This document shows, piece by piece, positions 20,485 through 20,806 of a stretch of DNA of 64,000 nucleotides (position 1 is its first letter; each line of letters begins with the position of its first letter). A model generated the notes under the pieces. That model saw only the letters and a list, made by a program, of their open reading frames with translations. It did no database searches and had not been told where the DNA came from. The stretch is from assembly GCF_003334405.1 (NCBI RefSeq), contig NZ_QOWM01000001.1; one strand, 5' to 3'. The position numbers and the translations under genes are program-made. This stretch comes from Escherichia coli. Its GTDB lineage: Bacteria > Pseudomonadota > Gammaproteobacteria > Enterobacterales > Enterobacteriaceae.

Positions 20485-20806
20485 GATTTTATTCCATTTT
20501 GATTGATTTGTTACAAATATATATTACCTAATGAAATAGACTATCAAAAAACGCTCATTTATTTAGAACCTATCTTTAATTTGAGTGTATGAGCGCACAA
20601 TAGCCAGGGGGGGGGAGTATCCTGGAAATGCAGAAAAGTAAACTCTTTGAGAAGGACGAGCAGAACGCCTGAAAATATGCCTTTCCCTTCAGGTTTGTCT
20701 GTGGATACCGCTTATTGATTTGAAAGGGCAAGCTGCCAACAGGCTGTTTGCAAAACTCAGGAGGTAAGCAATGAGGACACTACTTTCGGTGAAGTGGGGG
20801 AGTTAA

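Follow-up and report, generated by a model that had tools for sequence, protein, structure and literature searches.

The run of nine G residues upstream of yfdF in Escherichia coli differs in length between lineages, and the run is very probably a hypermutable mononucleotide repeat that evolves neutrally in upstream DNA that is not essential. The run had been picked out in an initial annotation of a 64,000-nucleotide stretch of DNA (the whole stretch that was analysed, referred to here as the window). Reading of the window sequence confirmed nine G at exactly 20607-20615, the positions given in that annotation, within CCAGGGGGGGGGAG. The window corresponds to E. coli K-12: the 501 bp around the tract are 100% identical to MG1655, and the counterpart in NC_000913.3 is C9 at 2,462,881-2,462,889. 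No annotated feature lies over the tract in this K-12 RefSeq record. The tract is located in the fadL-yfdF intergenic region, and the ATG of yfdF is found 123-131 nt downstream on the minus strand, in good agreement with the initial estimate of about 120 bp. Since fadL and yfdF are both encoded on the minus strand, the tract reads C9 on the gene strand. The features of the locus are collected in Table 1.

Table 1. Features of the fadL-yfdF locus, with coordinates in the 64,000-nucleotide window.
Feature	Coordinates	Strand	Basis
yfdF (= icaT), 352 aa, AT-rich, H-NS-silenced	19426..20484	-	ORF list, RefSeq annotation, literature
Putative yfdF/icaT transcription start, about 20508	20508..20508	-	Analogy with other MxiE promoters
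yfdF/icaT MxiE box, TGAGCGTTTTTTGATAG; begins 73 bp before the ATG	20541..20557	-	Table S2 of PMC9769918; same letters in the window
GC-normal (48%) segment of the yfdF island	20600..20838	-	Composition; island limits from the ST131 comparison
G9 on the plus strand (C9 on the gene strand), a hypermutable mononucleotide repeat	20607..20615	.	Sequence and alleles elsewhere
Terminator-like 13-bp stem-loop with a weak U tail, directly following the fadL stop codon	20804..20832	-	RNA fold
fadL (long-chain fatty acid channel / phage T2 receptor), upstream of the tract	20850..22190	-	RefSeq 2461306..2462646 mapped to the window

The tract is the only G/C run of at least 7 in the 64-kb window. The number of G/C runs of at least 9 expected per 64 kb is 0.33 when bases are treated as independent, 0.15 under a first-order Markov model and 0.02 under a third-order Markov model (1 of 60 simulations). 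The G9 run is moderately unusual for its DNA, yet not extraordinary. It is positioned at the junction of two segments of different composition, the promoter region at 20485-20600 with a GC content of 26% and the segment at 20600-20849 with 48%. A consensus scan for promoters and terminators returned sites no more often than in shuffled sequence and none at the tract, and an Rfam scan of 19300-22400 gave no covariance-model match at E-values up to 1. A 51-aa ORF with a TTG start (20576..20731) runs across the tract. This candidate was rejected, because the length variation is out of frame (changes are not in multiples of three) and no ORF is annotated over the tract.

The gene downstream of the tract has been characterized under another name. 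The initial annotation had regarded yfdF as an orphan gene, a label that no longer holds: yfdF is icaT, which in Shigella is an MxiE/IpgC-activated, H-NS-silenced substrate of type III secretion. In Shigella flexneri, MxiE and IpgC were shown to activate yfdF via a MxiE box, and icaT was introduced as the new name of the gene, whose product is secreted by the type III apparatus in Shigella (PMC9241512, PMC9769918; both 2022). H-NS was shown to silence yfdF in Shigella and E. coli K-12 alike, and supplying MxiE and IpgC turns on the K-12 copy (PMC9241512, PMC9769918). Mutation of the MxiE box abolished the activation of yfdF/icaT (PMC9241512, PMC9769918). A search of the DNA with the MxiE consensus, allowing up to 3 mismatches, gave no match; the yfdF box was missed because it differs from the consensus at 4 positions.

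The geometry of the promoter can be estimated from better mapped members of the same regulon. In ospC1, virA and ipaH9.8, 33 bp separate the MxiE box from the mRNA 5' end downstream of it. Fragments spanning -57 to +11 were shown to suffice for regulated activity in 13 of the 14 MxiE promoters tested (PMC3299695). By this analogy, transcription of yfdF would start at about 20508, which agrees with the junction of a published lac-promoter swap primer at AACAAATCAATCAA, about 20512. Relative to this putative start, the computed geometry places the MxiE box at -33 to -49 and the tract at about -99 to -107, that is, 50-58 bp upstream of the validated box. In both laboratories, the reporter fragments start from the stop codon of fadL (primer TAACGCGTTCGCCTGGATAA, which is the reverse complement of 20831-20850), so the published reporters contain the tract, with its length kept constant.

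In complete E. coli genomes, the tract was found as a series of length alleles. Among representative alleles, K-12-type flanks (..AAATGCAG) carry G7, G8, G9, G10, G11, G6TTG and GGGAGGTTG, and the other common flank type (..AAATTCAG) carries G6TG, G7TG, G8TG, G9TG, G5TTG (in O157:H7) and GGGTGGTTTG. Alleles were counted with queries of 90-92 nt that have identical 41-nt flanks, for which a single difference brings identity below 99%. Exact matches in complete genomes numbered 915 for G9, 345 for G8 and 149 for G10; as each count includes up to 92 partial matches from IS-interrupted loci, the corrected numbers are approximately 825, 255 and 60. Among genomes with K-12-type flanks, G8 accounts for about 22% and G10 for about 5%. 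Four assemblies of the E. coli W lineage have G8 (two of W itself, plus KO11FL and LY180, which are derivatives of W), and all three assemblies of ATCC 8739 have G10. The length differences are inherited within lineages. The same discrete length classes recur in an evenly spaced sample of 4,294 genomes. The initial annotation had described the run as prone to slippage and had proposed that other isolates be inspected for G8, G9 and G10. All three lengths are present, together with G7 and G11, on identical flanks; tract length is thus not invariant across strains, and the description stands.

Metagenome contigs connect this variation to the length of the uninterrupted run. A pattern scan of such contigs, not all of which are independent samples, returned 106 loci with 16 alleles. 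Their names are SPAdes-style NODE names in many cases, which points to short-read assemblies. The commonest alleles were G9 (23 loci), GGGTGGTTTG (17), G8TG (16), G8 (10) and GGGAGGTTG (9), followed by G6TTG (8), G10 (6), G5TTG (6) and rarer alleles, and rare intermediates such as GGGTGGGTG, G7TTG and G8TTG were seen as well. The metagenome loci, and these only, were sorted into haplotype groups by identity of their 2x200-nt flanks. Where the modal allele of a group contains at least 8 uninterrupted G, 11 of 40 sequences departed from the mode, compared with none of 21 where it is G6TTG or interrupted (Fisher p = 0.011). Instability therefore depends on uninterrupted run length, and interrupted alleles are stable. 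The allele GGGTGGTTTG was found unchanged on 12 flank haplotypes, the most of any allele, a spread that is as expected if it represents an old, stable state. G8TG and G10 were found on one shared haplotype, which indicates that one T-to-G change can merge runs.

An origin by merging and slippage is proposed for the tract. An interrupted ancestor of the GGGTGGTTTG type would have acquired T-to-G changes that merged its short G runs. From an uninterrupted length of about 8 upward, slippage during replication would add and remove single G.C pairs faster than substitutions arise in the flanks, and this would have generated the series of length alleles now seen among E. coli lineages. Published mutation-accumulation experiments support such a rate. 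The 8-bp G.C runs in leuP/Q/V/T were shown to acquire 23-29 indels each in mismatch-repair-defective lines, and the indel rate climbs exponentially with run length (PMC8510543). The tract site is not listed among the mutations in the supplements of the same study (PMC8510543). Literature searches on the tract or the locus as a mutation hotspot, genome coordinates included, found nothing relevant. An outgroup was also sought to polarise the alleles. A 22-mer of the MxiE box gave 0 matches in species-representative genomes, perhaps because the representative genome of E. coli is without the yfdF island. The flank pattern gave one match in these genomes, in Corynebacterium, which fits the approximately 2 chance matches estimated for 19 specified bases. 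As no outgroup was found, the polarity of the alleles is drawn solely from haplotype diversity. About 100 bp would separate the tract from the yfdF/icaT start downstream of it, a distance that places the tract beyond the MxiE-box core promoter. Since yfdF is silenced by H-NS and its activator is absent from E. coli, changes in length are most likely without consequence.

A run that is prone to slippage is also one that sequencing and assembly often miscount, and a hotspot of such errors had been raised in the initial annotation. The C8 run in the tRNA-Leu(CAG) genes leuV/leuQ/leuT (L021 2080-2402), whose sequence was confirmed from the K-12 record and in which indels are presumed intolerable, was used as a control. 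Among 5,426 RefSeq complete genomes, 362 (6.7%) have one or more copies called C7 and 64 (1.2%) have C9, corresponding to an error per tract of about 2.2% for loss and 0.4% for gain of one base, with a bias toward deletion. The concern about errors was thus well founded. Several assemblies deviate at both sites: 504239, W5-6, E308 and CFSAN064035 combine G8 at the tract with C7 in tRNA-Leu, the MG1655 assembly CP025268 combines G8 with C9, and WF5-5-T1 combines G10 with C9. It follows that part of the G8 and G10 signal is assembly error. Assemblies of laboratory K-12 derivatives disagree as well, with G8 in MG1655 CP025268, DH5alpha, NEB Turbo, NEB10-beta and Dam/Dcm and G10 in C600; some of the deviating derivatives (DH5alpha, NEB Turbo, NEB10-beta, Dam/Dcm, C600) are probably cases of assembly error. 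By estimate, 10-20% of the G8 calls may be erroneous. All of these miscalls would suit the reading that the length differences, or G9 itself, are nothing other than sequencing and assembly errors at a difficult homopolymer, which is nevertheless extremely improbable. The observed frequencies of G8 (22%) and G10 (5%) are about ten times the control rates. Independent assemblies agree by lineage, as with G8 in the four E. coli W assemblies, G10 in the three of ATCC 8739 and G9 in many of K-12, and metagenome contigs carry the same alleles in similar proportions. The TG, TTG and interrupted alleles differ by substitutions and therefore cannot be homopolymer miscounts. The call in the window is no artefact, since NC_000913.3 and approximately 825 complete genomes that share its flanks also have G9. 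Length variation at the tract exceeds the background of sequencing and assembly error. The 6.7% of C7 calls in essential tRNA-Leu genes provides, in addition, a useful quality indicator for RefSeq 'complete' genomes of E. coli.

A role in gene expression was also considered for this genuine variation. The initial annotation had suggested that the tract, if in or near the promoter, could vary expression between cells. A contingency locus of this kind, in which tract length acts as a phase-variation switch of yfdF/icaT transcription through promoter spacing or helical phasing, is highly unlikely, and this includes a version in which the MxiE-box promoter is phased relative to a factor bound farther upstream, such as H-NS at a nucleation or bridging site. 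Several properties of the locus are compatible with a switch. Its length is polymorphic on identical backgrounds, the gene product is a substrate of type III secretion in Shigella, the tract borders both an AT-rich H-NS-silenced region and GC-normal DNA, and all published reporters include it at constant length, as described above. The position of the tract argues against a switch: it is 50-58 bp farther upstream than the box at 20557-20541 (about -99 to -107 from the putative start), and -57 to +11 is enough for MxiE promoters, so that the suggested influence on expression is unsupported. A weak promoter-like pair, TTTCCA-N20-TATTGT, does hold the tract in its spacer. It is the only promoter-like hexamer pair to do so, but it scores 8/12. 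The K-12 spacer measures 20 nt, G8 shortens it to 19 and the interrupted allele extends it to 21; these lengths are out of range, as they are for all alleles but the rare G7, with which the spacer falls to 18. Apart from this pair, the tract lies neither in a core promoter spacer, nor between an activator site and a -10 element, nor in a reading frame, the positions at which phase-variable repeats act. The repeat is also not maintained across the lineages that carry the gene, many of which have stable interrupted alleles that are unable to slip (GGGTGGTTTG, GGGAGGTTG and G5TTG in O157:H7). Finally, E. coli is without MxiE and IpgC and keeps yfdF silent by H-NS, which leaves little for selection to act on. 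It is equally doubtful that tract length tunes the output of yfdF/icaT where the gene is active, in Shigella or EIEC with MxiE/IpgC, whether by the phasing or boundary of an H-NS filament or by Rho-dependent insulation from fadL read-through. Were this the case, the tract would act as a homopolymer 'rheostat' of a type III secretion substrate from a position upstream of the promoter and outside its spacer.

The C9 may alternatively be part of a Rho-utilisation region that stops read-through from fadL, a highly expressed gene, into the silenced yfdF. For such a region, composition would matter and exact length would matter little. In the minus-strand RNA of 20600-20852, C exceeds G throughout (73 vs 47), with C/G ratios of 1.1-2.4 in 78-nt windows, in line with a rut composition of about 80 nt that is C-rich and G-poor. 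The highest ratio (2.4, with 16 YC dimers in 78 nt) is found in the window that holds the run. The fadL gene, which begins at the first ATG in the ORF list and is there given as 20850..22172, is followed by a hairpin of -26.2 kcal/mol (z = -4.25, from the RNA fold of an 86-nt stretch). The consensus terminator scan did not call this hairpin at 20804-20832, and its U tail is weak. A contribution of Rho is nonetheless unlikely. The evidence for it is compositional, a literature search found no paper linking fadL to Rho-dependent termination, and the strong hairpin may terminate unaided. Even for this role, the homopolymer itself would be dispensable, given how common interrupted alleles are (CAAACCACCC on the RNA strand, for example). 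A neutral, slippage-prone repeat remains the reading best suited to the locus.

Other variation was observed around the tract. A second G run at 20796-20800, which on the gene strand follows closely after the fadL hairpin, is G5 in the window and G7 in strain VCSW7 (L006), a length change in one divergent lineage. In an ST131 genome, fadL (L008 1510-2850) has about 80.6% DNA identity to K-12 fadL, and the adjacent mlaA-yfdC side has 97.7%; the ST131 fadL is a strikingly divergent allele. About 1,230 of 5,424 genomes lack the yfdF island, which comprises the gene and its upstream DNA (about 19293-20838, approximately 1.5 kb). In the ST131 genome, 11 nt (CTTATTAAGCT) occupy its place between the terminator of mlaA and the stop codon of fadL, and no obvious target-site duplication was found at the island site in this comparison.

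Insertion sequences have also rearranged the locus. In strain W60, the IS110-family element ISEc20 lies inside the G tract (..CCAGGGGGG before and GGGGAGTATCC.. after the element; L019 ~3053-4501, at about 20612 in the window). The same junction is shared by 85 complete genomes with ST167-like names and sizes of 4.8-4.9 Mb. These genomes look clonal, which points to what is probably a single ancestral insertion, and the idea that the tract is a recurrent hotspot of IS insertion was rejected for this reason. In NMBU-W12E19 (L020 1-3049), IS5 and a truncated IS421 replace yfdF, and what remains of IS421 stops precisely at a leftover GGG of the tract, a second independent rearrangement breakpoint within it. 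In FORC_042 (L012 351-401), whose allele is G6TTG, IS1A is found in the fadL-yfdF region at about 20760 of the window, approximately 150 bp from the tract.

The tract belongs to a very well-known kind of sequence, to which it contributes a previously undescribed example. Its biological weight is small, as it is a further polymorphic homopolymer ahead of a silenced 'fossil' gene. Its practical relevance lies in two areas. The K-12 site (NC_000913.3 2,462,881-2,462,889) is likely to surface as a false or uninformative variant in resequencing, and the icaT/yfdF promoter fragments used in work on Shigella regulation contain a tract of variable length.

Three known systems resemble the tract in different respects. 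The first comprises the polymorphic non-coding mononucleotide repeats of E. coli together with the 8-bp G.C hotspots of leuP/Q/V/T, which share with it a run of at least 8, single-base changes and instability that depends on run length, and which likewise vary among otherwise identical sequences. In the leu tRNA genes, however, variants are removed by selection and are seen mostly as assembly errors, whereas the tract is intergenic and apparently unconstrained, so that its variants persist and reach high frequency. Phase-variable promoters constitute a second group, with poly-C/G in the spacers of opc and porA in Neisseria meningitidis and C-stretches in the fim promoters of Bordetella pertussis. 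They are similar to the tract in having a long G/C homopolymer upstream of a gene for host interaction, with a length that is polymorphic between isolates. In the opc, porA and fim systems, the homopolymer lies between the -35 and -10 elements, or between an activator site and the -10 element, and one base changes promoter strength. The tract differs from these in lying about 50 bp upstream of the MxiE box, outside the minimal promoter, and in having no known switching phenotype. The third system is the MxiE-box regulon itself, which includes ipaH, osp and virA as well as icaR/yjgL, yccE and icaT/yfdF. The yfdF promoter that adjoins the tract is a validated, H-NS-silenced member of this regulon; the tract falls outside its box and the minimal promoter architecture, and no other member has been described with such a run.
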